A stretch of DNA of 64,000 nt from Candidatus Micrarchaeia archaeon (GCA_038890815.1 JAWAFC010000003.1:575-64574); one strand, 5' to 3'; shown: positions 5,154 to 25,745, counted from the stretch's first letter. Program-made: numbers and translations. The notes: generated by a model not told the origin, from the sequence alone.

Positions 5154-8100
5154 TCAACTCTGTGGAGAGGGGGAGCTACTCTCCTGCAGTTGTTTCATTC
5201 CCTCTATTATCTCATCAATATCATCTTTAATTACACCTATGCGTCTCAATGTTATTTCCTTGTCAGACCTCGAGCTGTCTGCAATATCATTTTTTATCAC
5301 ATCGGCTGTTGAGGAAAGCATTTCGAGAGCTTTAATATGTACTTTGATTTGCTCCTTGAGATCCCCTGGAAGCTGCACATGGGCGAAATAAGCATTCCTG
5401 TAGTTAGCCAGAAGTTTATCGAGCCCTTCCTCTTTTCCGCTGACTGTTTTCATTGCCTCTACTCCCGCATCGGCTGACCCGAAACCGGCCAGCACTTTTT
5501 CTTCCAGGCTCCGCAGCTCGCCCGTTATCCGCTCCTCTGATGCGCTGTCATGCGCTGCCTTAAACAGCGCTTCCCGCTGCTCCTCTGTGGACAGCACGCC
5601 GAGTGAGAAGAGCTTTCCGCCAAGCACATAGGCGCTCGCATCGTTACTATCCATGAAATCCCGCTGGTTGGCCTCCCAGCCTCCCAATGATGAGCGTGCC
5701 AGGTTTGCCTGGTTCTGAAGCAATGCAATCTTTCCCTCGAGTTCATTCAGCTCTTCCTTCACGGCATTCAGCCTTCTCACTTTTTCCTTGTACGCAAGAT
5801 AGTCCTCGGGCAGAGAAATCTCGTATTTAAATTTATCCTCGTATTTACCGCCGTATTTCTCGATGAGCTTTCTCTCGGCCTCCTCAATTTCATGCTCGTA
5901 TTTTTGTATGAGATCCTTCAACTTGTTTATCCGACCGCTTGTTTCATCAACTTTCTCGTCCAACTCCTTCCACTCCTTGTAACTCTTTTCTATGGCCGTG
6001 CCATTCTTTTTGAAGAGAAAGTCGCCTATCTCAATCGCGGCTTGGAGATACGGCATGCCTGAGATGGCTGATGGTAATGCGCTGGCGCGCTCAAATGCAT
6101 CTTTTTTGGCTTCGAGATTTTCTTGTGCATTGACTAACTCTAAATTGGCTTTTGCCGCGGCCTCCATAGATAAGGCGAGCTCATTGAATTTCTTTATTTC
6201 AGGAGGGGGCGACTCGCCCTCGAATATTATGGTGCCGTCGGCATTGTATTGAAGTTTTATGTTATTTTTTATAGCATAGTCGACAACGTCCGCGTACGCA
6301 TTCTCGAAGGCCTCGCGCTCTTTTTTTGAAAGTATTGCCAGCTGTTTTTCATAGTTTTTCTCTGCGGCATCCAGCCTGTCGCGCGCCAGCCTGTACTCCG
6401 CCTCTGCTTTCACAAGATCCAACGCCTCACCAATACCCTTAGCGGCATTCAGCTTCTCCAAGCCGCTTTTGACGGCTTCTTTGTTGTTATTATAGTCGGA
6501 GACGAGAGCGTTTGCCTTTTCTACAACATCTTTTGGCACTTCGGCGAGCTTTATGCTACCATCTTCGAAGCTCACCTGAAAGCCGTGCTTCGCCGCGAGC
6601 TCGAACAGCTGCTCTCGCGCGCTGGACATTTTTGAATAAGCATCCTTGATATCGGCCATGAGCCGGTTAGCATCTTCCTCGGCTTCACGCGTAAGTTTGG
6701 CGTTCCAGAAGTTGTCATTGAAAGTTTCGCACAACGCGAGGACTTCGTCCTGCTCGCGTTTCATCACATTTTTTTCTTTCATGTCCTTTTCCAAAGCCTC
6801 GCGATCAATATGGCCAGCAAGGGGACCCTCTGTGATGAATTTCAGCGAAATGCCGAGTTTTTTTGCAAGCTTTTCCAGCTTTTCTTTCGCTTCATCAGCC
6901 TTTTTCTGATACTCTTTGCTTCCCGGCTGTTCCTTTATTGTGCGCTCGAGCCGAGCAAATACAATGGCCTCTTCCAGCGCCGGAATGCGTGGGTCGTCTG
7001 GATTTTCCGCTCTGAGCCTGTTGAGCTCTGCTTCCATCTTATCCAATTTCGAGGTGATAGCATCGTTCAACCCTGCCATAAAGCTGCCCGTGGCAGGAGC
7101 AATCCCGCTGTCCCTCATACCCGTGTGCATGAGCAGCTGCGCCCTGCCGAGTTTGAGGAGTACTAACGATTGGTTTATCGCGCTCAATCCGTAGGCAAGA
7201 GCGTGAAGCCACAGCGGCCCGGCCGCTTTCTCCTTCGCAAACTCAGCATACTTGGCCTCCCACGTATCAAGTGTTTTAACTATCCAGCCTGCTGCCGGGC
7301 CTACTATCGGGATTTTCCTGGCAACCTCGGCACGTGTGAGCGGGCCACGGGCACCCCTTACGAGTCTCACCCTACCTGTGATAGCACCAGCAAGGTATGC
7401 AGGATTAGTATAAAGTGCGGCATAACGCACAGCCTTGCGCGAGTACTTCGCCGTCTGCTCAACTGCCACCATCCCCCATCCAAACGGGGTGTATTTGGCG
7501 AACCAGGTGTATTTGCCCTTTTCGTCGCGCAGCATTCTGGCAAACTGTCCACGGAGCTTCCCAAACGGTTTGCCTTGATACGAGGACCATCTGCCCGACA
7601 ACATCAGCATCAGCGGACTGAATTTTTTCCCTATGGCCTCTTGCTCTTGCTGGAAAAGTTGCTCCCTTTGCTTAATTGCTACATCAAGCTGCTTCTTGAG
7701 CGTAATGACTTCTTGTGTGTTCTTTGCATTCTTTATCTTAGTTTTCAGCTCTTTTATCGTGTTATTCAATTCCCTTCCTCTCTCGCTTCTGTTCACCCTT
7801 GCGGCCGCAGCCACCGCTATGCCGGATTGGATGAGTGCTGCGATGGAGGCGGTTGATATCATCATTGCTTGAGGCCCTCTCAGCCGCACCCTCGGGGGCG
7901 ACACGCGCGCGGTGAGGTCGAGCACGCCGAATGGATTGCGCCCGCTGGCGAACATCGCGGCGACCAAAAAGCTGACGATCAGGATGAGGGGGAAGCATTG
8001 GGTGAGGGTGAAGAGCGGCGGGATGCCGCCGGTGAGGCCCGAGGAGGAGTTGCTGGGCTGGAAGAGGTTATCGCCCTTGAAGAATGCGACCACCTCAAAG

Positions 8101-8810
8101 CTCTCGCCCTGCCCGGGCAGTGCGTACGAAACGAAGGCATATCCCTTCTCATCGGTGATCTGGCTTATGGGCGTTTCGCCGGGCAGGCAGCATCCCGTGC
8201 GGCAGCTCAGCTCATCAAGCCCGCACGCTCTCTGGCCCACAAAGCCGCAGTCCTCCACGGGCACATCGACCTCGATCTCGCGTGTCTGGCAGCAGAATGC
8301 GCAGTTTTCAAAGCTTGTGCCGGGCGGGCAGCCGTTTGGATAAGCGCCCTTGAAAGCGCCGCTGGCATTACAGCAGATGGCAGTGGATGGCGGGCAGGGC
8401 GCGCTGCCCGCAGGACATGCGCCGGCTATCTTTTTTATCCAAGGAGTGGCTGAATAGGCATCCTCGCAGCAGCCGACTCCCTTGCTGCACTTGTGCGTGC
8501 CGGCGGGGCATTGAGCCTCGTCTGGGTCGGCATAGCAGCAGCCCGTGAGGTTTGCGCAGAAGCGATAGAGCGTGGGGTCGCCGCACGAGCTCGCGCACCT
8601 CTGAAAATAGATTGTCCTCTGTGGAAGGGGGATGAGCATGCGGCGTACGGCATCGAGCGCGGCCAGGCGCGCCCTCGCCTCGAGCGTGCCCTGCTCCGGG
8701 TTTGTTTTTGTGGTGAGGGTGATGACTGTGGGTGATTTGGGGGCTGGGCAACCTTCCTCCTGCGCCCACGCCACAGAAGCCAACAGGAGGGCGAGCAAGA
8801 GCGCGCGCAT
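5154..8810 (-). CDS. Large membrane-anchored protein: signal peptide, ~270-aa cysteine-rich ectodomain, TM segment(s), and a ~900-aa K/E-rich coiled-coil region
   Basis: A 1218-aa ORF. The N-terminus MRALLLALLLASVAWAQEEG is followed by ~40 Cys in CC/CxC clusters (GCCYADPDEAQCPAGTHKC, AICCNASG, NCAFCCQ, CRTGCCLPGET). The hydrophobic stretches PLFTLTQCFPLILIVSFLVAAMFA and ISTASIAALIQSGIAVAAAA follow. The remainder is heptad-rich (EKLEKLAKKLG and similar). Confidence 0.75.
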   Translation of the reverse strand: MRALLLALLLASVAWAQEEGCPAPKSPTVITLTTKTNPEQGTLEARARLAALDAVRRMLIPLPQRTIYFQRCASSCGDPTLYRFCANLTGCCYADPDEAQCPAGTHKCSKGVGCCEDAYSATPWIKKIAGACPAGSAPCPPSTAICCNASGAFKGAYPNGCPPGTSFENCAFCCQTREIEVDVPVEDCGFVGQRACGLDELSCRTGCCLPGETPISQITDEKGYAFVSYALPGQGESFEVVAFFKGDNLFQPSNSSSGLTGGIPPLFTLTQCFPLILIVSFLVAAMFASGRNPFGVLDLTARVSPPRVRLRGPQAMMISTASIAALIQSGIAVAAAARVNRSERGRELNNTIKELKTKIKNAKNTQEVITLKKQLDVAIKQREQLFQQEQEAIGKKFSPLMLMLSGRWSSYQGKPFGKLRGQFARMLRDEKGKYTWFAKYTPFGWGMVAVEQTAKYSRKAVRYAALYTNPAYLAGAITGRVRLVRGARGPLTRAEVARKIPIVGPAAGWIVKTLDTWEAKYAEFAKEKAAGPLWLHALAYGLSAINQSLVLLKLGRAQLLMHTGMRDSGIAPATGSFMAGLNDAITSKLDKMEAELNRLRAENPDDPRIPALEEAIVFARLERTIKEQPGSKEYQKKADEAKEKLEKLAKKLGISLKFITEGPLAGHIDREALEKDMKEKNVMKREQDEVLALCETFNDNFWNAKLTREAEEDANRLMADIKDAYSKMSSAREQLFELAAKHGFQVSFEDGSIKLAEVPKDVVEKANALVSDYNNNKEAVKSGLEKLNAAKGIGEALDLVKAEAEYRLARDRLDAAEKNYEKQLAILSKKEREAFENAYADVVDYAIKNNIKLQYNADGTIIFEGESPPPEIKKFNELALSMEAAAKANLELVNAQENLEAKKDAFERASALPSAISGMPYLQAAIEIGDFLFKKNGTAIEKSYKEWKELDEKVDETSGRINKLKDLIQKYEHEIEEAERKLIEKYGGKYEDKFKYEISLPEDYLAYKEKVRRLNAVKEELNELEGKIALLQNQANLARSSLGGWEANQRDFMDSNDASAYVLGGKLFSLGVLSTEEQREALFKAAHDSASEERITGELRSLEEKVLAGFGSADAGVEAMKTVSGKEEGLDKLLANYRNAYFAHVQLPGDLKEQIKVHIKALEMLSSTADVIKNDIADSSRSDKEITLRRIGVIKDDIDEIIEGMKQLQESSSPSPQS

Positions 8811-8831: not shown

Positions 8832-8841
8832 TTTATAAATA
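8832..8841. promoter_or_regulatory. Shared, near-palindromic TATA box (TTTATAAATA) for two divergent leaderless genes (ORF-A on minus, ORF-B on plus)
   Basis: It sits 22-31 nt upstream of the minus-strand ATG (8810) and 20-29 nt upstream of the plus-strand GTG (8861). The whole intergenic region is only 50 bp. Confidence 0.5.
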
Positions 8842-8860: not shown

Positions 8861-10078
8861 GTGCGGCGTGTGGTCTTGTTGCTTCTGCTCGCAGGCTGTA
8901 TCTCCCAGCCTCCCGCCAACATCACGCTAGCCAACGTCACCCTGCCCGCCAACATCACACAGGCGAACATCACTCCCGTGAATCTCACGCAGCCAAGCGC
9001 GGAGAACATAACGCTCCCAATCGTAACCATCTCTCCATGCAACAGAATTTCCGCCCAGCCCGAGAGGGATGCCTGCGTGGCCGAGGTCGCGCTGAGGCTG
9101 AAAGAGGCGGGGCTGTGCGCGCAGGTGGCCGCGCGCGATAGAAGGTTTGCCTGCGCGCTGTCTGTGGCGAGCGCCACGCGGAATGCCAGCGCCTGCCTTC
9201 AGCTCGGTGAGGAGGCGGGCAGGTGTGTGCTGTTCTTGGTGCCGAACATCGGAGGTGAGGGCTGTGCGCTCATCAGCGGGCCTGAGCGGGAGATGTGCGA
9301 GGGCCTGGCGGCCTCCCTGAGAGGCGCTGAGGCGTGCGTTGCGCTTGCCGGCAGGGCGAGGGAGGTGTGCGCAAGGCAGGTGGCCCAGAATACGGGTAAT
9401 ACGAGCGTGTGCGAGCTGCTGGCTGGCGCGGCGAGGGAGGGGTGTAGTGCCGGCGCGCGGAGAGCAATTGGGATTAACATTAGCTGGAGCTCCTGCGCCG
9501 ATGCCCCGCAGGCAGCAAGGGATGGATGTTATTACCAGCAGGGAGTGGCGCGCGGCGATCCGGCCCTCTGCATGAGGATATCGAATGCAGATATGAGGGA
9601 GGGCTGCCTTGTGGTGCAGGACGATGGGGCGCTGAGCGCAGCCGCGCTCAATCAATCAAATCCATCGGCATTGTACTGCAAGTACATTCGAGCGCCAGAG
9701 ATGCGGGATGCCTGTTATGAGTGGGTGGCCATCTACCTGCTCGATCAGGGCCCGTGCGCTTTTGTCTCGCACAAGGACATCAAGGATGCCTGCTTTGCCT
9801 TCTCAAAGGCAAGCGATGCCCTTGAGCGAATTGTGGCCTTTGGCAATCCGGAAGGATGCGCGGTGCTGAATTTTCTCGGGGAGAAGGATGCCTGCTACGC
9901 CCGCATCGCTGCGGCCAAAGGAGACGCAACAATATGCGAAAAAATCACAAAAGAGCCCATGAGGGTGGAGTGCGCGCTGTCCCTGCTGTCGCAGCAGAAT
10001 GCCGCGACAGTGGCCGCGATATGCGAGGGGCTGACCAATGAGGAGGTGAAGGCGAATTGCACACACGCGCTTGGCTGA
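8861..10078 (+). CDS. Secreted/lipoprotein-like glycoprotein: N-terminal NxT sequon-rich stalk followed by ~12 Cys-pair repeats
   Basis: A 405-aa ORF starting MRRVVLLLLLAGC. It carries NITLANVTLPANITQANITPVNLTQPSAENITL and then repeats of (R/K)(D/E)xC-13..25-C, for example ERDACVAEVALRLKEAGLC, PEREMCEGLAASLRGAEAC and EMRDACYEWVAIYLLDQGPC. Confidence 0.7.
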   Translation: MRRVVLLLLLAGCISQPPANITLANVTLPANITQANITPVNLTQPSAENITLPIVTISPCNRISAQPERDACVAEVALRLKEAGLCAQVAARDRRFACALSVASATRNASACLQLGEEAGRCVLFLVPNIGGEGCALISGPEREMCEGLAASLRGAEACVALAGRAREVCARQVAQNTGNTSVCELLAGAAREGCSAGARRAIGINISWSSCADAPQAARDGCYYQQGVARGDPALCMRISNADMREGCLVVQDDGALSAAALNQSNPSALYCKYIRAPEMRDACYEWVAIYLLDQGPCAFVSHKDIKDACFAFSKASDALERIVAFGNPEGCAVLNFLGEKDACYARIAAAKGDATICEKITKEPMRVECALSLLSQQNAATVAAICEGLTNEEVKANCTHALG

Positions 10079-11829
10079 TTTTGCTTGCGGTGATGGGGCT
10101 GGCCATCGCCCAGCCGACATGCAGCGATCCGGCAACTGACACAAGGTATGGAGTGTGTTTCTCGCCTGGCTCGGGCACGGAGGAGCCATTTGAGTGCCCT
10201 AATGTCACGGATAAGTGGGGGAACAAACACAACAATTCGCAGTGGCTCAAGCAGACTCCCCTCGGGGATTTCGCCCTGTCGTGCGATGACCTCAATCCAT
10301 GCACTGAGGATTTTTTCGATGAGGACAAGGGGAAATGCATGTGCAGAGCAGTGCAGGATGGCTTCTATGGGGAGTGCGCGGGGCCGGATATGAGCGCGAG
10401 CAATGCGGCCTGCACCGAAAAGCGTTGCATTGGGGGAGTTTGCAAAACAATCACCGTTAAGGGAATAACCCCCATGTGCTCGGCAAGTGCTACCTACGAT
10501 TCACCTTGCAAGATAAATGTGTGCGAGAGCGGCGTCTGCACCGGGCCGAGGATTATTGGAGTGAATTTTGATTCGCAACGGGCGTGCTGCGGCAACGGCG
10601 AGCTGGAAGGCGATGAGAAGGATTGGTGCTGTGCAGACCTGCAGGCGACCGGCACGGGCCTGCCTGAGGGAAAGGAGTGCATCGGTGGCATAATGGTCAC
10701 AAAGAGCTATCTGGAGAGGGACCTTCAGCCCTTCATCAGGGCATTTCCATCGTGGGGGCCCGTCATCGTGCTCGCCCTTCTTATAGGCTATTTCCTCGCC
10801 GCGCTGGGCTACATGGCCGCGAGCTTTTTCAGGATGCCCGAGCTCGAGGCATGGGCAAAGAACGAGCTGGCTGAGGTGAGCGCAAGCGCGTTTTTTGCGG
10901 CCAATGCGATTTTTTTCATCGGGCTGATTGATGCGGCAGCTGTTGAGCTCATTGGGAAAGATTACTTCACCGTGGCGGCGAGCTTCCTCAACCTCCTGGC
11001 GGGCGAGACAGCGGCCATCATGGCCGAGCTGACGAGGGCGCAGTTCATTCTCGGATTCGGCTCAATGCTTGGAGTGCAGTTTGGTGTGCCTATATTTATT
11101 GTGATCGGATTCCTCGTGCCGGGCATGACGGCCTATCCTCTCGTGGGGGCTCGCATCATCACCACGGCGCTCGCCACCTATGGGAATGTCGCCACAATGA
11201 GCCTGATGAGCGCGCTCGGCATGGCCGTACTGCTGGAGTTCATAAACAGGTATGCGCTGACCGTCATACTGCCCGCTGGCATTGTGTTGAGGTGCTTCAC
11301 GCTGACGAGGCGGCTGGGGGCAACGCTCATGGCCATCGCAGTGGGCCTGTACGTGTTTTACCCACTGTCGCTGGCATGGAACGGCATGATATACGGCAAT
11401 GTGGAGAGGCCCAGCACGGGCGGCGTTTCGTTCATGAGCATCATAAACAACATCGTCGATCCCACGCCATTCCTTGAGATATTCGGCGGGCCCCCATTCA
11501 GGAGGTTCTGCGTGCACTGGTATGACTGGGTATGGTGCTGGTGGTATGCCATCATATGGTGGATCATCAACATGGTCATCGCATTCATCCAGCTTACCAT
11601 AGCGCTGGCCATGCTGTATTATGTTGGGCTTGCGACCACGCCCATAGGCGGCATCGGCGTGCTTGCATACGACTATTTTGTCGGTCTCATACCATCCATG
11701 ATTAGAACGATGGCGGGGGCATTCCTCTTCCCACTCATAGATCTAATTATAGTGGTTACGGCCATACGCTCGATATCGCCCGCCATTGGCGGGGAAACGA
11801 GGATAACGGGGCTGGTGGAGTTCATATGA
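10057..11829 (+). CDS. Membrane protein, paralog 1 of a six-member family, with an extra N-terminal ~200-aa cysteine-rich (EGF-like CxC) ectodomain
   Basis: A 590-aa ORF with a signal peptide and Cys-rich region. It then carries the family motifs GYMAASFFRMPELEAWAKNELAEV and LPAGIVLRCFTLTRRLGATLMAIAVGLYVFYP, plus the C-tail GETRITGLVEFI. Confidence 0.75.
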   Translation: MHTRAWLILLAVMGLAIAQPTCSDPATDTRYGVCFSPGSGTEEPFECPNVTDKWGNKHNNSQWLKQTPLGDFALSCDDLNPCTEDFFDEDKGKCMCRAVQDGFYGECAGPDMSASNAACTEKRCIGGVCKTITVKGITPMCSASATYDSPCKINVCESGVCTGPRIIGVNFDSQRACCGNGELEGDEKDWCCADLQATGTGLPEGKECIGGIMVTKSYLERDLQPFIRAFPSWGPVIVLALLIGYFLAALGYMAASFFRMPELEAWAKNELAEVSASAFFAANAIFFIGLIDAAAVELIGKDYFTVAASFLNLLAGETAAIMAELTRAQFILGFGSMLGVQFGVPIFIVIGFLVPGMTAYPLVGARIITTALATYGNVATMSLMSALGMAVLLEFINRYALTVILPAGIVLRCFTLTRRLGATLMAIAVGLYVFYPLSLAWNGMIYGNVERPSTGGVSFMSIINNIVDPTPFLEIFGGPPFRRFCVHWYDWVWCWWYAIIWWIINMVIAFIQLTIALAMLYYVGLATTPIGGIGVLAYDYFVGLIPSMIRTMAGAFLFPLIDLIIVVTAIRSISPAIGGETRITGLVEFI

Positions 11830-12803
11830 GGGCTTGGCTCATCGTGCTTGCACTCCTCCTTGCCGGCTGCACAGCCGAGCCACTCGCCGAGCTGCCTGGA
11901 TGCATCGCCCTGAGCGTGCGTGAGGAGCCGGAGCTGTATGGGTTGGTATTCGTGGCGCTGGTGGGCGTGCTGTTTGCCATCGCCATCGGCTACATGGCAG
12001 CCCAGCTTTTCAGGAGGCCTGACTGGGAAGCCATGGTGAGAGTGGAGCTCACCCAGACACTGCTGGGTGCGAGCATGATTTTCATCGCTGTGTGGCTGAG
12101 CGCATTCTCCTGCTCGATAAGCTATGAGCTTGCCGGGGGGGATACATTTGCCAAGGCAAACGCATACCTCGCAGGACTGACTTACGGGGAAATGATTCCG
12201 GCCATCATGAGGCTGTACGACAAGGCATGGCAGGCGGAGAAGCTGACGGCCTGGATCATTGGCATTTCCTCCTGCATGAGCGGCGTGTGTTTCCAGCCCT
12301 ATGCAGGCTACAGCATGGTTAGCTACAACCTCGGAACTGTGGCCGGCCTGCTCGCTCCCATCGTCACTTCGCTCATGGTGCAGATGCTCGCCCTCCAATT
12401 CATACAGCAGTTCGCATTTGTTTATCTGCTTCCGCTCGGCCTGCTGCTCAAGGCCGTGCCCTTCACAAGGGAAGCCGGCGCATTTCTCATCGCGCTCGCC
12501 ATCGGGCTGTATGTGGTCCTCCCGCTCACCTATATTTTCAATGCGAGAGTCATGGCGGACATCGGGCCGAGCATCACTGCGGGGAGCTACTGCGCGCTGA
12601 AGGCCGGGCCGGGTGACAAGCCAGGCGGGCAGGCGCTCGACAGCACGCTGGAGGGCGTTGGTGGGTTGTGCTCCACGGTCATTGCAGTTGTCGGGAAGAT
12701 TCTTCCGCAGGCAGTTTTCCTGCCCGCCCTCAACATAGTCATAACGCTCGCCTTTACAAGGACGATGGCGAGGATATTCACGCGGGATTACATGTTGGGG
12801 TAA
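11826..12803 (+). CDS. Membrane protein, paralog 2 (FtsX/MacB-like topology; novel family)
   Basis: A 325-aa ORF with an ATGA overlap to the upstream gene. Its motifs are IGYMAAQLFRRPDWEAMVRVELTQ and LPLGLLLKAVPFTREAGAFLIALAIGLYVVLP. Confidence 0.75.
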   Translation: MRAWLIVLALLLAGCTAEPLAELPGCIALSVREEPELYGLVFVALVGVLFAIAIGYMAAQLFRRPDWEAMVRVELTQTLLGASMIFIAVWLSAFSCSISYELAGGDTFAKANAYLAGLTYGEMIPAIMRLYDKAWQAEKLTAWIIGISSCMSGVCFQPYAGYSMVSYNLGTVAGLLAPIVTSLMVQMLALQFIQQFAFVYLLPLGLLLKAVPFTREAGAFLIALAIGLYVVLPLTYIFNARVMADIGPSITAGSYCALKAGPGDKPGGQALDSTLEGVGGLCSTVIAVVGKILPQAVFLPALNIVITLAFTRTMARIFTRDYMLG

Positions 12804-12807
12804 TGGC

Positions 12808-14025
12808 ATGCGGAAGATGATACACTTTGTGCTGCTTTGGCTTCTGCTTGCCAACAGCGTGGCTGCCGAACAGCAGTGTGAGGGCACGCGCATGTGCACG
12901 CTGTTCGCCAACTGGGCGCCCATCACTGCCATGGTCATACTCATCTCTCTCTTCGTTGTGTCGCTGGCCTTCATGGTGGGCAAGGGCCTCGGCATGCGGG
13001 ACATTGAGATGTTCGCCAAGGAGGAGCTGTACCAGTGCATTGCCAGCGCACTCATCCTCGGTGTGTTCATCAGTTTTGCGGCGCTCCTTGAGAGCACCTC
13101 GCAGCAGCTGGCCGGTGACATACTGACGGCCGGCACTCAGGGCACGACATTCGGCACACCAATCACAATGCGCTGGGAGTACACGGGCGACAGGAGCATG
13201 CGCTGGAGGACGACGGGCGCGCTCACCATAGAGAGATGCGGAGCTAACGACCCATTTCCCGATAAGAAATGCCACTTTTATTTGGCCAGGGCATTTTTGG
13301 GCAGCACGTTCGAAAAGCTGTCTGGGCAGGCGAGGGAGGTCGTAAAGCTGTATGGGCTCAGCATACTGTTTGACACCACATCCGTAAGCCTGGGGCTGCT
13401 TATCTTCGGACCCGTGTTTGGATTGGGGTTTGGCGTACCCCTTTTCGGTGGCAACAGCCTCCTGTACGAAACGCTCGAAACCATCTTCTCGGTCATGGCG
13501 AAGACGATGCTGCTGCTGAAATTCCAGGAGGTATCGCTCATGTACATCGAGAGGGGAATTTTCCCAGGCCTCATGATTGCCGGCCTCGTCTTCCGCTCCA
13601 TCTGGTTCATGCGGAAGCTCGGTGGGCTGCTGCTCGCGCTCGCCATCGGGCTATACACAATATTGCCGTTCATGTACATACTCAGCTGGTATACGATGGA
13701 TGCCGCACAGGCGAGGTATGATGTGAGCGCGCTGACCACCGCGCTTCAGAATAGGCAGAGCGCAGCGCAGGCCGTGATGGAGGAGCGGGGGCGTGATGTG
13801 GGGATAGGGCTATTTTTCCACCATGAGTACAGTGTGCTATTCACACACTACAGGTCTGATGGCAGCGTTGAGTACTATGGCATGCTCGATCTGGCCGGCA
13901 GGTATGCGCTCATAGCCATGGCAACGCCCACCATCGCGCTGTTCGTGCTGCTTGGTTTCGTGAGAGAACTGTCCGGCTTCCTGGGAGGGGACATTGAGAT
14001 CGCCGGACTGACGAGGATATTGTGA
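12808..14025 (+). CDS. Membrane protein, paralog 3
   Basis: A 405-aa ORF with the motifs LAFMVGKGLGMRDIEMFAKEELYQ and FPGLMIAGLVFRSIWFMRKLGGLLLALAIGLYTILP, and the C-tail GGDIEIAGLTRIL. Confidence 0.75.
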   Translation: MRKMIHFVLLWLLLANSVAAEQQCEGTRMCTLFANWAPITAMVILISLFVVSLAFMVGKGLGMRDIEMFAKEELYQCIASALILGVFISFAALLESTSQQLAGDILTAGTQGTTFGTPITMRWEYTGDRSMRWRTTGALTIERCGANDPFPDKKCHFYLARAFLGSTFEKLSGQAREVVKLYGLSILFDTTSVSLGLLIFGPVFGLGFGVPLFGGNSLLYETLETIFSVMAKTMLLLKFQEVSLMYIERGIFPGLMIAGLVFRSIWFMRKLGGLLLALAIGLYTILPFMYILSWYTMDAAQARYDVSALTTALQNRQSAAQAVMEERGRDVGIGLFFHHEYSVLFTHYRSDGSVEYYGMLDLAGRYALIAMATPTIALFVLLGFVRELSGFLGGDIEIAGLTRIL

Positions 14026-15212
14026 TGGCAACGAGAGCTGTGCTCAGCGTGCTGTTGCTTTTGGCTATGGGAGGGGCTGCCTGGGCGCAGGCAGCATGGG
14101 CTCCTGGCTGGATGAGCGTGGCTTTCCTGGCGCTGTTGGTTTCCTATTTCATGATAGGACTGGCCTTCATGTATGCCATAGGCTTCCAGGACGCCAGGAT
14201 GGAGGCCTGGTGCAGGCACGAGTTTTACCAGAACAGCGCCACGGCTGTTTTGCTGGGCATGCTCGTGGGGGTGAGCGCGCTGCTCGACAACACGCTGTAT
14301 CCGGCGTTCTGGAGCACGTCAATACTCAATCCTGAAAGCCAGAGGGCCAGCGCGAGCGTCTGCCCCAGCTCCACGCTGTCGGTGCCTGGGTTTGGGCTCT
14401 CGGTGACGCTCAACTCGCTGCGGTACAGCCCGCCAAGGGGAGGAAGGGGATTTGGAAACATACAAAATCATGTTGTGGGATATGTGGGGTGCCTTAGAAC
14501 GGCGGTCACAAAATACCTACTCGAGCTAAATCTCGGCGGTGTGTTCTTCGGCTTCATCTCCTCGCTGATGTTCAGTTTCGAGTTTGTGGAAATCAAGTTT
14601 GGCATGCTCAACATAATGCCGGGCGTTGTGATGAAGCCGGTGACGGACATGCTCGGCTACATAAACACGCTCGTGGCCATGCTCTTCCTGCAGCTCAGGG
14701 TGCAGGAGCTTGTGCTGACTTTCGCCCGCGATTATGCATTCTCTTTCCTGCTGCCTCTCGGCGTTGCCCTCAGGGCATTCACTTTCACGCGCGGGGCGGG
14801 TGGGGCGCTCATCGCCATCGCTGTCGGATTCTACATCGTGCTGCCCATCACCTATCTCTTCCAAGAGGAGATAACTGCTGATTACTGCGCGCGCCATGAC
14901 TGCCAGCGCTCGCTGCTCGCCAGATTTGGGTATGCGGGCAATCTGTATGACATCATTGTGGGGCTCATGGCAAGCGCACAAAGCGGCGGCATTGGCAGAG
15001 GGCTCACTGTGGCAGGCTCATTTGGGCAGGGCTACTCGCTGTCCGAGCTGATGTCGCTCAATGGACCTTTCGGGCCCGTGATATTCGTAGCCGGCATATC
15101 GGGGGCCGTGCTGCCCGCGCTCGGGCTCATCACGACATTCATATTTATGAAGTCCTTCGCGAACCTCATGGGAAGTGATGTGGACTTCAGCACGCTGATA
15201 AAAATTGTTTAG
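14022..15212 (+). CDS. Membrane protein, paralog 4
   Basis: A 396-aa ORF with an ATGA overlap. Its motifs are LAFMYAIGFQDARMEAWCRHEFYQ and LPLGVALRAFTFTRGAGGALIAIAVGFYIVLP, and the C-tail is GSDVDFSTLIKIV. Confidence 0.75.
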   Translation: MMATRAVLSVLLLLAMGGAAWAQAAWAPGWMSVAFLALLVSYFMIGLAFMYAIGFQDARMEAWCRHEFYQNSATAVLLGMLVGVSALLDNTLYPAFWSTSILNPESQRASASVCPSSTLSVPGFGLSVTLNSLRYSPPRGGRGFGNIQNHVVGYVGCLRTAVTKYLLELNLGGVFFGFISSLMFSFEFVEIKFGMLNIMPGVVMKPVTDMLGYINTLVAMLFLQLRVQELVLTFARDYAFSFLLPLGVALRAFTFTRGAGGALIAIAVGFYIVLPITYLFQEEITADYCARHDCQRSLLARFGYAGNLYDIIVGLMASAQSGGIGRGLTVAGSFGQGYSLSELMSLNGPFGPVIFVAGISGAVLPALGLITTFIFMKSFANLMGSDVDFSTLIKIV

Positions 15213-15220
15213 GTGGAAAC

Positions 15221-16258
15221 GTGAGCGTGTGTGCTGACCTGGCGAACTGGCCATCCGCCTGGTACACGGTTGCGGCCATCGGCATCGTGGCATCGGGCGC
15301 CGTCATTGGGTTGGTCTACATGATTGGGGTGACGCTCGGCAATCCCGGGCTCACCGCGCGCGCAAAGAACGAGATCTACCAAGTGGTGGCAACGCTGTGC
15401 ATGCTTGCCCTTGCCGTTGGGTTTGTGGGATTCGCCTGCACGGCCGATCTCAGCGGTTTCGGAGTGAGCGGAACGATCTATTCCGCCGCCGAGGCCTACC
15501 TCTCGTGGCTCGCCAGCCGCTCCATGTACGTGCTGGAGAGAATGATGCACCTGGCAGGGACGTGGGGATTTCTGGGCAGCATCGGCATGGGGATCACGAT
15601 AAGCGGCATAGGCTTCTCTTTCAACCCTTTCTCGGGCCTTTTTGGGCTTGTCAACATACTCAACATATTCATGTCGACAGCGCTCATCCTGTCGCTCACA
15701 ACGGCCGCGCAGTATGTGGTGTTCAAGTTCGCGCTTGAGGGCTTTCTGGGCTACCTCCTGCCTGTTGGTCTGGTGTGCAGGTGCTTCCCATTCACCCGCG
15801 ACTTCGGGGGCGCGCTGATTGCGCTCAGCGTAGGCTTCTCGCTGTTCTATCCATTCCTGTTCGCAGTGGACTGGGCGCTGGTGGGGCAGCCAACCAAGAG
15901 TACAATTGGAGGAGGGGGAGGAGATTTTGACAGGTGGGCGGTGGTGGATACGCTTGTGGGGTGGTATGTCTCCTTTGTAGTCGAGACTGTTGGTATCGTT
16001 ACCTTCTTTGCCGTCGTTGGAGTTCCGCTCATAATCCCGCCCATCCCGATTGTGAGCATACTGAAAATGCTCATGGAAATCTCCATCATGTTCCTTGATT
16101 CGATGATGCAGAGCGCGCTTATGCCGATAGGCGAAATACTTGTGGGCGGGCTTTTCCTGCCCGCGCTGAACGGCATCATACTTGTGGCTGTGGTGAGAGA
16201 TCTGTCGCGCGTGCTCGGCGAGGAGGTTGACATAACGACGCTGACGAGGATGGTTTGA
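15221..16258 (+). CDS. Membrane protein, paralog 5
   Basis: A 345-aa ORF with the motifs LVYMIGVTLGNPGLTARAKNEIYQ and LPVGLVCRCFPFTRDFGGALIALSVGFSLFYP, and the C-tail GEEVDITTLTRMV. Confidence 0.75.
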   Translation: MSVCADLANWPSAWYTVAAIGIVASGAVIGLVYMIGVTLGNPGLTARAKNEIYQVVATLCMLALAVGFVGFACTADLSGFGVSGTIYSAAEAYLSWLASRSMYVLERMMHLAGTWGFLGSIGMGITISGIGFSFNPFSGLFGLVNILNIFMSTALILSLTTAAQYVVFKFALEGFLGYLLPVGLVCRCFPFTRDFGGALIALSVGFSLFYPFLFAVDWALVGQPTKSTIGGGGGDFDRWAVVDTLVGWYVSFVVETVGIVTFFAVVGVPLIIPPIPIVSILKMLMEISIMFLDSMMQSALMPIGEILVGGLFLPALNGIILVAVVRDLSRVLGEEVDITTLTRMV

Positions 16259-17304
16259 TGACGTGGGAGACGAGCGCTGCTGATGTATACAAGACTTTCG
16301 GGGGCTATGGCTGGCTGGAAGTGGCCATGCTCGCCCTGCTCACCGCATTCCTGTCTGTCGCGCTCGCCTACATGCTCGCCATAGGGTTCAACCTGCCGAA
16401 CCTGAGGAGGTGGGCGAAAGCGGAATTTTATCAGGCTGCCGCGAGCGCCATGCTGGTGGCCCTCGTGTTCACGTTTGTTGAGGGAACAGATCTCCTGACT
16501 GGGGAAAGCCTGAAGTACTCGGCCGGCATCCAGCTGCTCCAGAAAAACACCGAGCTGTTTGCTGGCGACATCGTGGCGCCCGGCCAGAGGGGAAGGGTGA
16601 GGCCATTCAATGTTGTTTATGCACACGTGACCAACATGATAAACTGCGCCAGAGAAAAATACCTCAATGCCCTTGGCGAAACACAATGGCGGGAGTGGCT
16701 GACGCAGATTGTGATCACCCTGTCGATATATAAGATCGATTTGGTGATTCCGTTCCAGCTTCTCCTCTGGCCCCTCTACACGAACATCGTTGAGAACCAT
16801 GTCCTCGCCAACAGCCTTGTGTGGACGCTCATGGCCCTCTACTTCCAGCAGTCCTTCCTGCAGTGGGTTGAGACCTCGATGCTGACTGTGTTCTTCCCGC
16901 TCGGCATCATTTTGAGAATACTGCCCATCACGAGGGGAGCCGGAGCCGTGCTCATCGCCATCTCGCTGGGGCTCTACATCGTCTACCCGCTGCTGTTCAT
17001 ACTCATCGCCACAGCAGTGACTCCACCGAGCGGCTGCGCAAGGACCGAGATAACTCTCGAGCAGCCGCCCGAGATATGCGTCAGCGACCCATCGTCTTTC
17101 GTGCAGTTCCTAAAGGCAGCCGCACAGAGCAGAGGCACGCTCTACAGCGGGCAGGAGGCAAGCATGATGGCCCAGCTCACCATGTACGCCTTTTTCTATC
17201 CCCTCGTGATGATACTCATTGTGGTCATCTTTGTCAGGACGGCCTCCTCATTCCTCGGCGCAGAGATCACTGAGGTCGGGAGGGGGCTCTTCAGGCTGAT
17301 TTGA
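16255..17304 (+). CDS. Membrane protein, paralog 6
   Basis: A 349-aa ORF with an ATGA overlap. Its motifs are LAYMLAIGFNLPNLRRWAKAEFYQ and FPLGIILRILPITRGAGAVLIAISLGLYIVYP, and the C-tail is GAEITEVGRGLFRLI. Confidence 0.75.
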   Translation: MMTWETSAADVYKTFGGYGWLEVAMLALLTAFLSVALAYMLAIGFNLPNLRRWAKAEFYQAAASAMLVALVFTFVEGTDLLTGESLKYSAGIQLLQKNTELFAGDIVAPGQRGRVRPFNVVYAHVTNMINCAREKYLNALGETQWREWLTQIVITLSIYKIDLVIPFQLLLWPLYTNIVENHVLANSLVWTLMALYFQQSFLQWVETSMLTVFFPLGIILRILPITRGAGAVLIAISLGLYIVYPLLFILIATAVTPPSGCARTEITLEQPPEICVSDPSSFVQFLKAAAQSRGTLYSGQEASMMAQLTMYAFFYPLVMILIVVIFVRTASSFLGAEITEVGRGLFRLI

Positions 17305-17951
17305 TGCGCGCGTTCATCAAAAGAAACTTTCGGGCAGCGCTGGCGGCTGCGGCGTTCACTCTCGCCATACTGCTGGCCGCGCTTGCCTTTGTTGCCACAC
17401 CTCCACCATCCCAGCCTCCCCTCCCAGCGCAGGCTGAAGAAGTCCAGCCATCGGTGTGGGAGCCATTCCTGCCGCAGAACTGTAGCCCTTTCTTTGCCCC
17501 GACGACTGCCTCGTATGTCTATGCGGTGCGGTTCTCTGCTGGGGGCACTGACATAACAGGGCAGGTAAGCCATGAGCTCATATCGAGCAATGACTCATAC
17601 ACCATGAGGGATGTGCTGACAACGCCATTCGGAAAGTCTGCAATAGTTTGGGAGCTTGCGCCTGACCTGAGCTGCCGCCGGGTGCGCGCGAGCGCGGAGA
17701 TGAGCGGCATGCAGAGGGTGGACCGAGAGCTTCCGTGCGTGCCGCCCATTCCGTTTTTTGGGGCACCCTGCAGGGAGGAGATGGTGCTGAAGGGACTTAC
17801 AAACGCCAGCACGCCTTTCGGCACGATACCGGCAAAGGTTTATCATGCTACATCATCCAATGCTACATACATTGTGGCGAACAACATCGATGTGCCTCTC
17901 AAATTCGCCATTGGCAACATGCAGGGGGAGCTGATAAGATATGAAGAGTAG
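17301..17951 (+). CDS. Small N-terminally anchored or secreted protein of the same operon
   Basis: A 216-aa ORF with an ATGA overlap upstream and an 11-nt overlap with the downstream giant gene. It has a hydrophobic N-terminus followed by a Pro-rich linker. Confidence 0.55.
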   Translation: MMRAFIKRNFRAALAAAAFTLAILLAALAFVATPPPSQPPLPAQAEEVQPSVWEPFLPQNCSPFFAPTTASYVYAVRFSAGGTDITGQVSHELISSNDSYTMRDVLTTPFGKSAIVWELAPDLSCRRVRASAEMSGMQRVDRELPCVPPIPFFGAPCREEMVLKGLTNASTPFGTIPAKVYHATSSNATYIVANNIDVPLKFAIGNMQGELIRYEE

Positions 17952-20900
17952 AGTGCTCCTGCCGCTGCTTTTGGCGGCTGTGGTGCTGTCGAGCTGCGTG
18001 CTCAAGATAACCCCCAGGGTATCGCTGCCGACCTTCTCGCCCTCGCTAGGAGTGGCCGAGGCGCCATCAACCTGCAAAGAGCCGCCTTGCTACTGCATGG
18101 TGGAGGAGCAGCGCTATCGCTACAAGACATGGAGCTGCACGGGCAGTGCGGCCTCTGTGTGCGGCGAATTTGCCGGCGCAGCGGCCTGTTTCTTCAACTC
18201 AAGCGAGGGGGACTGGTGTGAGTATGTCGGAGGGGGAAGCGGCGGGCAGGGTAATTATCTGTGCTTTCAGTGGAATGGCTGCTATGACCCGGGAGGCTAC
18301 TATGTGCATGTCAAATGCAACTGCTGGTTCCAGGATGACATCGAGGTAGATTTCCTAGGTACAAAGAAGCCGGAGGATTTCAAATGCGGCTGCTTCATCT
18401 GTCCGGGCTGCCCGAGCACAAAGCTGAAATGCTGCGATCCGGAGTGCGCCACGCTCAACCTCACCTATGCCAAGCTTGCTGACGGCAGCGATGACACGGC
18501 CAGGCCGACCGGCATACAGAGGGATGCCGCAACAAACGCCCCACTGATAACGCGCAGGAAATGTGGGGAGGTGAGGCCGAGCATTCCTGGGCTGGGGAGC
18601 GGGCCTGCCATGGAAACGGCCTTTGCGCCCGGGCCGGCTGGATGTAGGGTGAACTGCACTTACGGCGACACAGCAAACTACTATTGCTATAAGAAAACGG
18701 CCAACGAGTTCAGCATCCACAGGAACTGCAAGACAGCATGGCTCTCCACGCTGCAGGGCGGAAGGCTGCTCACTGTCATTCCGTGCGATGCGCAGGAGAT
18801 GGCGCGCATCGTGAATTCGCCAACAAAAAAGCTCGTGCTTTTCAAAATAGGGCAGGGCCAGAGCCTCCAGGACTTCGAGTTTGCTAAGCAGCAGTGCCGG
18901 CTCGTCCCGCCCGATGTGCACAGGGTCACCATGGGCAAGCTCACTTTTGAGCCGACAGAGGCGAGCGTGCCGAGCTATGTGCGCTTCTGTTTCGAGAACA
19001 AAGACATCAAGCCACACAGCGTTTGCCAGAGCCAGGCAGGAGCGTGCATGCCCAATGGCCTCGCCTTTGACATCAAGCCCGAGGCCAGCGCCTGCATTGA
19101 GAGCGATGGCCTGGAGAGGCTTGGGGAGGGCAGCCACACCTTCATGGATGGCTTTTCAAAAGAGGAGTTCGTGCTCACGATAAAAAAGGCCGAGGCAGTC
19201 TTCGCCCTGCGCGATGCCATAAGCCCGCCCTATCTCGTGGGCTTTGAGAATGTTGGCGTGCGCTTTGAAAGCTATGCTGACATCGATAGGGAGATTCGGC
19301 CCATCGGCTTCTTTGACAGCATGCCGCCATTCAGTGTGCCGGCTAGGGGCCAGACAACCATGCAATTCAGGCCAGGGGTGTGGATGCTGAACGATACGGC
19401 GACCGGCACGCTCGCCACGCTGTTCGTGCTGAGCGAGACAAGAGATGTGAGGATTGGCGATGACATGGGGCCGGAGCGCATCGCCATACTCAGCGGCAGT
19501 GAGGTTTGCTTCAACAACACGCGCGGGGAACCCGTAGAGCTCGAAATATACGAGCGCTATGTGGGCGGCTTTTCGTACATCATGAACAAGAGCGTCGTGC
19601 CCGGAGGAAAGTGCTGTTGGACTCCGGAGCCTGGCAAGTATTTCGTCAATGCCAGCGGGGTTGGGGGAAACACGACGATATTTGTGGGAGAGGAGGCAGG
19701 GGCTGTGTTTGTCAGGATAAACAATCCAGAGTACTCGCCGCCTGAGCTGCTAACAAAGGTCGGCATGCGGGTGTGCTTTGTCAATCCATCAACAAAGGAA
19801 AGGACTGTGAGCGGTGGCGGCGCGTCGCTGGCCATACCGGCAAAATCGTTTGATTGCTCGTGCGTGCGCGTGCCGTGCCTCGTTGTTGAATCTGAAGGCA
19901 CGAACACATACGAGGACAGCGTCACCAAGGCCGTGTTCAAGGTCAGCGCGACGAGGAAGGAGAACAAGTTCATGAACATCACCGCTTACGGCATTTTCCC
20001 GCAGGGCGTGCTGTTCGATGGGCCCGGCAGCGTCTGCTTTGCCAACAAGGACAATGTCGAGCATGAGGTGAAGCTTGCCGAGAAATATCTCCATGTCGGT
20101 GGTGCTGTCAGACGATTGGCGGGCACGGAGAGCGTTAGGGTGGCAGCAGGCGACATCGGCTGCATCGAGCTGCCCGATGCCAATGGCTCTTTTGTGTTCA
20201 CCACATCCGGCAGGGCCGGCGAGCTAGTTGGGGTTGCTGTGAGAAACGATGCCCCGCCGAAAGCCGATCTGGCCGATCCAGTGGCGCGCAAGGCGGCTGA
20301 GGGCGTGGCGCGCATATACTTCACGCGGGCTGGGCCATTCCCGCGCGTACAGAGGGTGGGGAGCTTTGGCGACATCGAGCTGTGGAACGCCGACAACAAG
20401 CCGCACACTGTGACTGTGAACACTCAGACGCCATGCGACCAGCCTGATGCCTCGGGGGTAACGCACAGGCTGTGCCCCACCGTGAGCCTGAAAACATGCG
20501 ATGGGGGCGGGTGTGGGGGAGTCATCTGGCAGAGCAGGATGAAGTTCAAGCCCACAGACCCTCCGGCCATCGAGATACCCCCAAAGACCTACACATTCAC
20601 GGACGCTGGGAATAAGGCGAGCGTTGAGGTCATCAGCAAGGGCTTTGAGGTCGAGCTGGAGGCCATGGGCATTCCCACGCCATCCATTGCATCGCCACAG
20701 ACGATGGGCGGGAACCTGAACCTCATAAACCTGTTCAGGAGCGGGCCCATGCCTAAGACAACGCTGATGGCGCTCAGGGGATACATCCACCAGAACATCA
20801 TACCGGTCATCACGACATCGTTCGGCGGGCCGGGGCAGAGGGTTGTTGAGGAGATAGTCAAAACAGAGAGCGTGGAGACTTTGGAGTCTACGGCCGGCAG

Positions 20901-23900
20901 CAATCTCATCATCTACAACGGCGACAGGGTGGCGCACAAGGTCGCATTCGGTGCGCTGTTATATGATTATCCGGCATTGCTGGATTGGTTTGGGGACAAG
21001 GAGCTGCCGCCATGCGGCAACTGCGATGTTACAGACCCGACCAGCGATTGTGCAAAGAGATGCGCCATTTATTTCAATGAGAGCGGCACTTGGTGGGCGA
21101 GCGATGATGAAACAGCAGGGAAGGTGGAAAACGATCCTCCTGCAGTGCGCCCAATGCCGGCTGGCATATTTGTCGTGATCGACATCGGGTATGGCCAGAA
21201 CATTGAGGAATACAATGAATATGTGGCTTGCGGCGAGGATGCGGGCTGCAGAGTCAGCAAAGGGATTGCGCTATTCTGGAGAGTGCTTTATGGAGAGCCG
21301 ATTCCAGCAAAAGTTTACGGGATTTTTGTTGCGAGCGGGGAGAAAGAGCTTGAGGTTTCGCTGGACAGAACAAAAGAAACTGGATGGGGATGTGCTGGCT
21401 ATTGCCAGTTTGATGAGAGATGCCTCGACACAAACTCGGAGTATTACAAGCTCTTCAAGGATTTCTGCGATGCTCCGGCCGAGATAAAGGATCAGGGCGG
21501 AAACATAATATGGAGTGGCAGCAAAAGAGATTGTTATAATCGGTGCAAAAACAGCATCAGCAGCAGTGCCGTTGATCTGAGACTCAAAAACAGCGAGTCC
21601 GACAACTCGGCCCGCGTCTGCTTCAGGAATGATGGCTGGAAGACGAGGCACCTGCGCGTGCTCGACTGGCTTGTTGCAAAAGATGATGGAGGCTCCGTGA
21701 GCCTGCCTTATCATGGAACTAACCAGCATCCGATAAACGAGAGCTACACTGTGTTTAAGGAAAGTGGCGGCACATATTCAAAGGCATTTGATATAATTCT
21801 CGCAACGGACATCCCCGAGCCTGAGGTGATCATCGGCGATGAGAGGGAGTTCGCCACGCGCAATTACGCCGATTCGCTACGCTTTGTTTCGCCGACACAG
21901 ATAAAATTCAGCATCAAGACGAGCGACAAGAGGGAGCTGTTCTACAGGGAAAAGGCTGACGGGGAGTGGAAGCCCTTCCTGCTTGTGAACGGCGTGGATG
22001 ATGGCAGGGGATGGAAGGCGATTGCAAGCAATGGCCAGACGCTCTATTTCCCAACAGATTTCAGCGGCTTTGGCCAGGATTGGCATGGCCAGATAGACAT
22101 TCTGGACAACGGCACAATTCTCCCTGGATGCACTTTGATACCGATGCCATTTGGTTGTGCCGGCCCCGGTATTGTTGTGGATGCCTCCTATGATGCGAGC
22201 GACGATTCCTTCTCTGGTTTCTCGGGTTGTGATGTGAGCCGGTATGAAAAAACCGTGAAGGGGGATGTCGTCTATGACTCTACCAACATGTACCAGAAGT
22301 GCCTTTCTGACGCTCGCGCGGAATGCGATGCGCAGGCTAAGAAATACGCTGATGAGATGTGCAGGCAGGACCCGGCTACCACGCCGTGCAAAAACAATGG
22401 ACCATGCCAGGCCAACCCAGACCCAAATGTGGGTGGAGACTGCTGCGCTGACTCCGACTGCTCCTGCCCGAGAAGCTGTGAACAGGGAGCTGGTTGCGAG
22501 CCTGACTATAGCTGCATCGACGAATGCAATGTCAAGTGGCAGAACTACATTGCCTGCATCTCGCCTTCTGGCGACTACTACAGCTCAAACTACGGTGCAT
22601 GCTATGCTGAGAAAAGCGCCGAGTGCGAGGCCAATTGGAGGAAGGACGTGACGCTCACCTATAAGAACGTCACCTGCAGCGGCCTGGCGACTACGGACGT
22701 GCCCTATGAGCACATCATCTACACGCCGCCAAACAGAGTGGTGTGGTGGTACAAGTTGGAAAATGGCCGGCTCGAAGAGCTGTTTAACTTCGGCTTGTCG
22801 GACAGCTTTGTTAATGGAGTCAACTCCTACTTTTATGTAGTCAGCAACGATAGCATGCTCGTTGGCTCGAGCGATGAGAGCATCATCCCAGTGCCAAAAA
22901 ACAACAAAATCACCTTCCAGTACGTTTTCACTTACAGATATCAGCTCACAAAGGGCAGCAACAAAATCATCAGGCTTGAATATGGCCTGCCTGTCGATGT
23001 CAAAAATGCCAGGCTGAACGTTATGCTTCCTGTCGACTCGCCCGTGTTCAGCTGGAAAGGGGATGCTATGATAAACCAGACCTATGATGATGATAAGATC
23101 AGGAACATCCCGCCGGGCGAGATGGGGTGCTTTGAGGCGCCTTTCCCAAGCTGGCCAACAAACAAGGGCTATGATCAGCTCGATGGCTATGTGATTTATG
23201 ATGCTGACGAGCTGGAGGACTACACGCGGTTGAAAAATAAGAATTTCTATAAAGAAGTCGGCCAGAGCTGGAGCAATGATAATGATAGGCTGTTCAACCA
23301 CGTGTGGGCTTACCAGTTCTTCGGAAGCAGTGCAGTGCCAAACAACCTCTATCCAGAGGCAACGAGGTTTGTCGAGCTTGCCGACTTTGACTGGGGGACA
23401 AGGCTGGGTGCTGTGGCGACATCGCCCGGAGGCTCGGTGACGCTCAAGAACAAAGCCGAAAGCGATGCGGTTGGCATAACGAACCACATAACCTATGAGG
23501 TGAGCAACGGCCTGTACCAGCATGTGTGTCCGGGTTATAAATGCCCTGATGGAGTTGATGGCAAGATCGTCCCGCCCATAAAACCGGATAAACCGAGCGA
23601 GAGGTATTCAGAAGATGATTGCAAGGGCGAAAACCCGCGTGCAGGGTGCCGGTACTTCTTCAGGGTTGATGGAGGTGGTGCCCTCACGCTTGCCGGGCTG
23701 GAGCCGGGCAGCTACAAAATAACTGAGAGCGTCAGCGACAAATCCATAGTCATAAACTCAAAGAGGACAGACATCGTGCTGCCGCTTATCTATGAAAGCT
23801 GGGACCCGACATTCTCCACCGTGATGAGCGGCAGTGAGATTTGCGTGAGGAACACCGATGAAAAGCCCAGGACTGTGACGCTGAAGGGTGGGTGTGGATG

Positions 23901-25709: not shown

Positions 25710-25745
25710 GAGATTAAAATGTTATCTGCTATTTTAAAGCACGGG

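Follow-up and report, generated by a model that had tools for sequence, protein, structure and literature searches.

A cysteine-pair helical repeat in a predicted surface lipoprotein of a Candidatus Micrarchaeia archaeon

The gene and its position at the head of an operon

We describe here the open reading frame (ORF) ORF-B, which is encoded in a 64,000-nucleotide (nt) stretch of DNA from a Candidatus Micrarchaeia archaeon (GCA_038890815.1, JAWAFC010000003.1:575-64574), referred to below as the window. ORF-B starts with a GTG codon, encodes 405 amino acids (aa) followed by a stop codon, and lies exactly where an earlier note on this DNA had placed it. An identical protein is present in a public assembly (P0001), where the annotated start lies three codons downstream, and an orthologue (P0002) shares 41% identity across 98% of the length. 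ORF-B is the first gene of a 10-gene operon (8861-24978) with junctions of -22 to +8 nt, and its product consists of a signal peptide ending in a lipobox, a stalk rich in N-glycosylation sequons, and a long body of cysteine-pair units that belong to a large and so far unannotated repeat family (Table 1).

The 50-base-pair gap between ORF-B and a divergently encoded 1218-aa protein holds one near-palindromic TATA-like element, TTTATAAATA, for the two divergent start codons. Measured from its centre, the ORF-B start codon (GTG, 8861) is ~25 nt away and that of the minus-strand gene (ATG, 8810) ~27 nt; in the orthologous locus, TTTTAAAT occupies the equivalent relative position. This suggests that one bidirectional promoter region serves both genes, and the spacing between element and starts points to divergent transcripts that may be leaderless or near-leaderless.

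Table 1. Coordinates of ORF-B, its parts and the associated features in the window
Feature	Position	Strand	Basis and remarks
Divergent 1218-aa protein	5154..8810	-	Signal peptide, Cys-rich ectodomain, transmembrane segment, ~900-aa predicted cytoplasmic part
TATA-box-like element TTTATAAATA	8832..8841	.	Read from sequence; gap between ORF-B and divergent 1218-aa gene
ORF-B coding sequence	8861..10078	+	ORF call; identical public protein P0001; orthologue P0002
Signal peptide with lipobox (MRRVVLLLLLAG followed by C)	8861..8899	+	Cys13 is the predicted lipid-attachment residue
Pro/Asn/Thr-rich stalk, residues 14-59	8900..9037	+	Six NxT sequons, loose 5-residue (x-A-N-I-T) repeat
13 Cys-pair helical units	9038..10075	+	Spacing, AlphaFold2, unit hidden Markov model (HMM); first Cys of units at residues 60, 86, 112, 135, 159, 184, 212, 237, 273, 299, 333, 359, 388
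Six tandem paralogous polytopic membrane proteins	10057..17304	+	Co-directional with ORF-B; first with Cys-rich ectodomain
216-aa membrane-anchored protein and 2345-aa secreted protein (operon end)	17301..24978	+	
Two DsbA-like thiol-disulfide oxidoreductases	39716..41016	-	Pfam Thioredoxin_4/DSBA; CPFC site each

A periodic Cys-pair repeat, its predicted fold and its family

ORF-B contains 27 Cys residues in total, the lipobox Cys13 and 26 repeat Cys that fall into 13 pairs, one more than the roughly 12 that the earlier note had proposed. The successive gaps between the repeat Cys (12, 14, 12, 14, 10, 13, 11, 13, 11, 14, 11, 17, 11, 14, 12, 24, 12, 14, 12, 22, 12, 14, 12, 17 and 12) alternate between short and long, with the second Cys of each unit found 10-12 residues past the first. 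Measured from one first Cys to the next, the units span 23-36 aa with a mode of 26, a correction to the 18-30 aa given before. Periodicity of the Cys residues had been set beforehand as a point on which the repeat would stand or fall, and it holds, as 21 of the 25 gaps lie within 10-14 and 16 short/long alternations are observed, while 100,000 shuffles never exceeded 13 such gaps and 5 alternations. The (R/K)(D/E)xC motif described at the same time is real and is found ahead of the second Cys in ~10 of the 13 units; the overall composition of the protein is 17.8% Ala, 6.7% Arg, 6.4% Glu and 6.7% Cys. No DNA-level tandem repeat was found in the repeat body, and the units are therefore taken to be old and diverged.

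With respect to the fold, the AlphaFold2 model of ORF-B, for which a MAFFT alignment of 40 repeat-protein relatives served as input, is an all-alpha array with a mean predicted local distance difference test score (pLDDT) of 84.5, in which most 10-residue blocks of the repeat region score >90. DSSP assigns 28 helices, and short and long helices alternate through the repeat region, each unit comprising a short helix of 4-6 residues with the first Cys and then a long helix of ~15 residues with the second Cys. The model supports an alpha-hairpin solenoid as the predicted fold of the body. Of the "disulfide-stapled alpha-hairpin solenoid" that had been suggested before, the helical array is thus reproduced by structure prediction, while the disulfides and their connectivity are backed indirectly only.

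We searched 1.84 billion cluster representatives exhaustively with HMMER, using a profile that combined ORF-B with its orthologue, and obtained matches in 1,868 clusters at E<=1e-3 (270 at E<=1e-10), a wide spread that the earlier note had not noticed. Among the top 150 relatives, two Cys spacings dominate, with 1,475 gaps of 12 and 1,738 gaps of 14, and the consensus derived from 1,033 exact C-x11-C-x13-C units reads C-[ED]-K-I-x-D-x3-[RK]-D-x-C-Y-x2-[VI]-A-x4-[DN]-x-S-[LI]. An HMM of the single unit, built from the relatives, matched 10 segments of ORF-B with 78 bits in total (2-17 bits each). Lipobox-like N termini are present in 80 of the 150 relatives, with a median linker of 32 aa versus 46 in ORF-B. 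Given the profile matches, the shared Cys gaps and the recovery of its segments by the unit HMM, ORF-B belongs to this large family; it combines the alternating ~12/~14 Cys spacing with significant profile similarity and with the lipobox and linker. By its sequence it is a GC-rich and rather degenerate member of what appears to be an archaeal repeat family. Compared with the family consensus besides Cys (I at +3, R/K-D ahead of the second Cys and Y after it, A at +17, D/N at +22), its positions other than the (R/K)(D/E)xC motif are degenerate and Ala/Arg/Gly-rich.

The relatives carry little annotation. Where protein names are given, they read "hypothetical protein", except for one "zinc ribbon domain-containing protein", and organism names are attached to four relatives only, from Altiarchaeota (twice), Diapherotrites and Micrarchaeota. 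In one sampled family locus, archaeal ribosomal and transcription genes are found beside the family member. A Pfam scan of 94 further relatives (E<=1e-3) returned only sporadic accessory domains, for example a zinc ribbon in two. Furthermore, a word-indexed homologue search recovered ORF-B itself and one orthologue only, to which a 40-sequence profile added one more, and pattern scans of genomes and metagenomes yielded no orthologue of either ORF-B or the adjacent membrane protein.

Anchor, stalk and genomic context

The N terminus of ORF-B reads MRRVVLLLLLAGC, a signal peptide whose last residues form a lipobox (LLAGC); this lipobox went unmentioned in the earlier note. Its layout, MRR-VVLLLLL-AG-C, comprises a charged n-region, a hydrophobic h-region and the lipobox itself, and the final L-A-G-C fits the lipobox definition [L/V/I][A/S/T/V/I][G/A/S]C (PMC12462473). 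LLAGC is kept in P0002. AliA, a protein of the archaeal lipoprotein pathway, has been reported from Euryarchaeota and DPANN, and the lipoprotein anchor of Haloferax is thioether-linked archaeol (PMC12462473); in the literature we found no demonstrated lipidation of any DPANN protein. On the strength of its motif, ORF-B is probably lipidated at Cys13.

The stalk that follows the anchor contains six NxT sequons (N20, N25, N31, N36, N41 and N49), not the eight that had been counted before, and the stalk sequence quoted at that time is present, at residues 20-52 instead of ~18-50. At the DNA level the stalk contains a degenerate 15-nt repeat. Across the whole protein there are 11 N-x-S/T sequons, five of which lie in the repeat region; in 20,000 shuffles the total of 11 was reached in none, and a cluster of 7 within 35 aa was likewise reached by none. 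Residues 18-55 have a pLDDT <50 in the AlphaFold2 model and are predicted to be disordered. The linker of P0002 carries 5 sequons, and among the lipobox-bearing relatives ORF-B has the most sequon-rich linker, with this orthologue second. The enrichment extends to the family, with 846 sequons observed versus 555 +/- 21 in shuffles and a hot spot just ahead of each unit's first Cys. As expected of an N-glycoprotein, ORF-B thus presents sequons in an exported, predicted-accessible segment, and its stalk may be glycosylated. The earlier description of an archaeal surface protein with a glycosylation stalk is in line with the Micrarchaeia origin, the predicted disorder of the stalk and the sequon-rich stalk of the orthologue.

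ORF-B and the next gene share 22 nt, at a TTG start that supplies the next gene's signal peptide, and the eight junctions after this overlap range from -11 to +8 nt. The paralogy of the six membrane proteins is evident from their alignment, in which they share the motif LP.G..LR..PFTR.AG..LIA.A.G.Y. They have no Pfam and no PDB sequence match, and an AlphaFold2 model (pLDDT 70) gave a best Foldseek E of 0.24. The second of them (11826-12803, +) has a lipobox-like LLLAGC start that is followed directly by transmembrane segments, and lipobox-type signals are frequent within the window. Relatives of the membrane paralogues are also found on other Micrarchaeota contigs. At the operon end, the 2345-aa protein (17941-24978, +) shows a lipobox-like VLSSC, 100 Cys and 20 sequons and is not matched by any Pfam model; in contrast to ORF-B, its Cys residues are irregularly spaced. 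The divergent 1218-aa protein has 23 Cys in the 254 aa of its ectodomain and 1 Cys in the 884 aa of its cytoplasmic part, and the charged, heptad-like sequence of the latter looks like a coiled coil. A BLAST comparison among the Cys-rich ectodomains of the cluster detected no similarity.

We observe that the whole arrangement, divergent 1218-aa gene included, is syntenic on a Joint Genome Institute (JGI) metagenome contig (L001), with identities of 62-70% for the membrane proteins, 41% for ORF-B and 36% for the 1218-aa protein. The exposed components thus evolve fastest, given their lower identity to L001 than that of the membrane proteins. In two more distant versions of the operon (L034 20954-21527 and L036 18374-19888), the last gene of the membrane-protein array encodes a DUF87/TraG-like (HerA/VirB4-type) ATPase, a sequence hint that the array may form part of a translocation machine. 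The window operon is without an ATPase of its own, and the HerA-like gene of the window is found 6.5 kb past the operon end, on the other strand and near NurA.

Apart from the operon, the window encodes Rad50 (25206-28046, +), HerA (31527-33029, -) and NurA (35376-36413, -), which are spread over 11 kb and both strands and share no operon, as well as an archaeal-type fructose-1,6-bisphosphatase and SRP54. Of the window ORFs that were scanned, none was identified as Mre11. A 785-aa protein (49733-52090, -) shows a weak T2SSE match (E=0.001) and is unusually long for the type II/IV secretion ATPase family. The two DsbA-like genes are adjacent and overlapping, one product being transmembrane-anchored and the other a predicted lipoprotein (FLLGC). 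With respect to the source organism, SRP54 shares 87% identity with its counterpart in "Candidatus Micrarchaeia archaeon" JZ-2, with the next-best Micrarchaeota at 53-68%; the isolate name JZ-2 presumably points to a hot spring.

Interpretation, alternatives and comparison with known systems

The reading that we favour, with some reservation, is that ORF-B is an exported surface lipoprotein in which a disordered, glycan-carrying stalk bears a disulfide-stapled alpha-solenoid, and that this solenoid serves as a scaffold or binding surface of the operon. The signal peptide would end in the lipobox, leaving Cys13 probably thioether-linked to a membrane lipid, and the disordered stalk of ~45 residues with its six sequons would keep the body off the membrane. 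The body would consist of 13 copies of the 26-residue repeat, C-x(9-11)-C-x(12-23), each with a short and a long helix, which would stack into an alpha-solenoid. Every unit would contain one structural disulfide, introduced by the exported DsbA-like enzymes that this genome encodes. The result would be a short-repeat scaffold able to withstand extracellular conditions, which, if the name of the closest genome is a guide, are probably those of a hot spring. As a fast-evolving, solvent-exposed member of the operon, ORF-B may act as a scaffold or as the ligand- or partner-binding surface of an envelope complex; its most likely function is that of a lipid-anchored, glycan-carrying scaffold or binding surface.

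ORF-B would in this respect be a protein of a known kind, a disulfide-stabilised alpha-solenoid; what is new is the repeat itself, widespread and unannotated, in surface proteins of DPANN archaea. These archaea rely on contact with host cells, and their surface proteins are mostly unannotated. The ~1,900 clusters without a curated model in the Pfam and NCBIfam copies searched, or a solved PDB relative, amount to an annotation gap, and a profile of the repeat would label many "hypothetical" envelope proteins at once. The operon itself, with six membrane paralogues, a giant of 100 Cys, a coiled-coil-like transmembrane protein and no database match, is a candidate Micrarchaeia envelope machine. 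A more far-reaching proposal, possible but doubtful in our view, is that C-x11-C-x13 defines a helical repeat of a new type, restricted for the most part to DPANN and Altiarchaeota and among the shortest alpha/alpha solenoid units, each disulfide-stapled, from which these ultra-small archaea build lipid-anchored, glycan-shielded and rapidly diversifying surface receptors that recognise host cells or partner complexes, one Micrarchaeon copy having been recruited as the exposed adaptor of a multi-paralogue membrane machine.

Several observations weigh against parts of the favoured reading. The AlphaFold2 input was an alignment of repeats, with an ambiguous register, and the predicted template modelling score of the model is only 0.49, which makes the overall shape and curvature of the superhelix uncertain. 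Family members accept insertions on either side of the Cys pair, so that spacing alone cannot fix the connectivity of the Cys, and the gaps adjoining long ones, 14-type in 167 cases and 12-type in 90, give an ambiguous picture. Within the unit, N22 and S/T24 co-occur 120 times versus 111 expected under independence, and because this is no higher than independent preferences predict, N22-x-S/T24 may serve to cap a helix instead of being a glycosite under selection; furthermore, no oligosaccharyltransferase (AglB/STT3) match was obtained among the window ORFs scanned with Pfam. Lastly, the distant operon versions L032, L034 and L036 contain no repeat protein, and other members of the repeat family sit in unrelated gene neighbourhoods, which leaves an operon-specific role of ORF-B weakly supported. 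ORF-B is thus an accessory, fast-evolving and lineage-specific addition to a conserved envelope operon.

These last two observations also fit a protein that is independent of the operon, a generic envelope coat or shield (surface-layer-associated or glycocalyx) that came to be inserted at this locus by chance, and so does the near absence of fused domains in a family whose other members are stand-alone genes. The 22-nt overlap with the next gene, the promoter region that ORF-B appears to share with a divergent envelope gene and the position kept in L001 speak against such independence, which we consider unlikely.

With respect to the state of the cysteines, all 26 repeat Cys are kept in the 41%-identical orthologue, and the number of Cys after the anchor Cys is even in 68 of the 80 lipobox-bearing relatives (~6 standard deviations from 50:50). 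Cys make up 4.3-9.7% of the predicted outside domains of the cluster versus 1.16% of 15 cytoplasmic proteins, and within the 1218-aa protein 9.1% outside versus 0.11% inside. From the even counts, the exported DsbA-like genes, the enrichment of Cys outside only and the conservation in the orthologue, we infer one disulfide per unit in ORF-B, with the DsbA-like pair as candidate catalysts. This disulfide is probably formed between Cys 12 apart. The ORF-B array opens with a first Cys and closes with a second Cys, so that pairing Cys(i) with Cys(i+12) leaves none unpaired, while the alternative pairing would strand both terminal Cys; among the 150 relatives, the final gap of the array is 12-type in 130 and the first gap in 96. 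A comparison of co-loss between Cys partners is uninformative here, as the unit HMM recovers only units with both Cys.

The very high Cys content (6.7%) at regular spacing could also be read as a set of functional thiols or metal ligands, used in metal sequestration, Fe-S binding or redox buffering, in place of structural disulfides, the evidence on the oxidation state of the Cys being indirect. We hold this to be quite improbable. CxxC or CxxH knuckles are absent, the Cys are strictly paired, with hydrophobic residues of the core type next to them (consensus L/I-C and C-Y), and the even counts in the relatives, the export signal with the nearby exported DsbA-like genes and the confinement of the Cys enrichment to predicted extracytoplasmic domains all argue for structural disulfides.

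As to known families, no Pfam or NCBIfam model matches ORF-B or ten canonical relatives even at E<=1, and in the 94 further relatives no Pfam model covers the repeat at E<=1e-3. Profiles of 2 and of 40 sequences matched zero chains among PDB sequences at E<=10, HcpB and HcpC included. Foldseek searches with the model gave weak and generic TPR, Sel1, ARM or designed solenoids, with a best E of 0.018 against PDB (TM <=0.24) and 0.028 against BFVD (TM <=0.26), and hhalign returned a probability of 0.1% for the bona fide TPR protein of the window (28084-28623). We found no description of the C-x11-C-x13 repeat in the literature; the "CysRRep" of a 2026 preprint is a different repeat. The earlier statement that the repeat could not be placed in a known family holds against Pfam, NCBIfam, PDB sequences and the folds in PDB and BFVD.

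The TPR unit has 34 aa and lacks conserved Cys, and the Sel1-like repeat unit has 36-44 aa. One could nevertheless regard ORF-B as a divergent, Hcp-like member of the TPR/Sel1-like superfamily, and hence of a family already known, as TPR, Sel1 and ARM solenoids are the folds that match it best, albeit weakly, and as disulfides tether the Sel1-like repeats of the secreted Hcp proteins (PMC3851747). We give this little credence in view of the missing TPR or Sel1 match in Pfam for ORF-B and all relatives scanned, the failure of the family profiles to match any PDB chain, the low Foldseek TM and the unit of 26 aa. Membership of the TPR clan was rejected on the absence of a Pfam match at E<=1, the hhalign probability and the unit length, and membership of Sel1/Hcp on the absence of both a Pfam match and a PDB chain at E<=10. 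That ORF-B is no real gene and owes its periodicity to chance in GC-rich DNA, as the many long spurious ORFs overlapping the region in other frames might suggest, is refuted by the orthologue with all its Cys, the 1,868 related clusters, a periodicity unapproached in shuffles, the confident fold prediction and the synteny, and is practically inconceivable.

Among systems with a comparable outline, nanohaloarchaea encode giant membrane-anchored surface proteins together with VirB4/TraG-like ATPases, for which a role in host interaction has been proposed (PMC10266531). The DPANN locus described here resembles these loci, by analogy only, in its very large extracellular proteins and membrane components; the nanohaloarchaeal giants are built of Ig-like domains, whereas Cys-pair helical repeats are predicted here. 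With the lipoproteins of the AliA/AliB pathway of Haloferax volcanii, ORF-B has in common a signal peptide ending in a lipobox (L-A-G-C in ORF-B), but its repeat body shares nothing with characterised archaeal lipoproteins. TPR proteins (Pfam clan CL0020), which supplied the top weak Foldseek matches, are stacked helix-turn-helix solenoids like the predicted body of ORF-B, and a solenoid fold of the TPR type usually serves as a protein-binding scaffold. The ORF-B unit differs in its length of 26 aa versus 34, in the lack of a match to any TPR model and in the hhalign result.

The closest known principle, drawn as an analogy, is the disulfide-tethered Sel1-like repeat of Helicobacter Hcp, in which the superhelix is stabilised by a disulfide that connects the end of each repeat with the beginning of the following one (PMC3851747). 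Like HcpB and HcpC (1KLX, 1OUV), ORF-B would be an exported alpha/alpha solenoid with one Cys pair per repeat, and the principle of the stabilising disulfide, which for ORF-B is deduced indirectly, would be shared. The two differ in that the ORF-B unit has 26 aa instead of 36-44 and pairs a short with a long helix instead of two similar helices; no sequence or profile similarity is seen, the similarity in fold is weak (TM <=0.26), and ORF-B is archaeal, with a lipobox anchor and a sequon-rich stalk. If our reading is correct, disulfide-stabilised solenoids, so far known from Hcp, would also occur in archaea and with a shorter unit, of 26 residues and one disulfide, which could be of interest to designers of heat-stable extracellular scaffolds.

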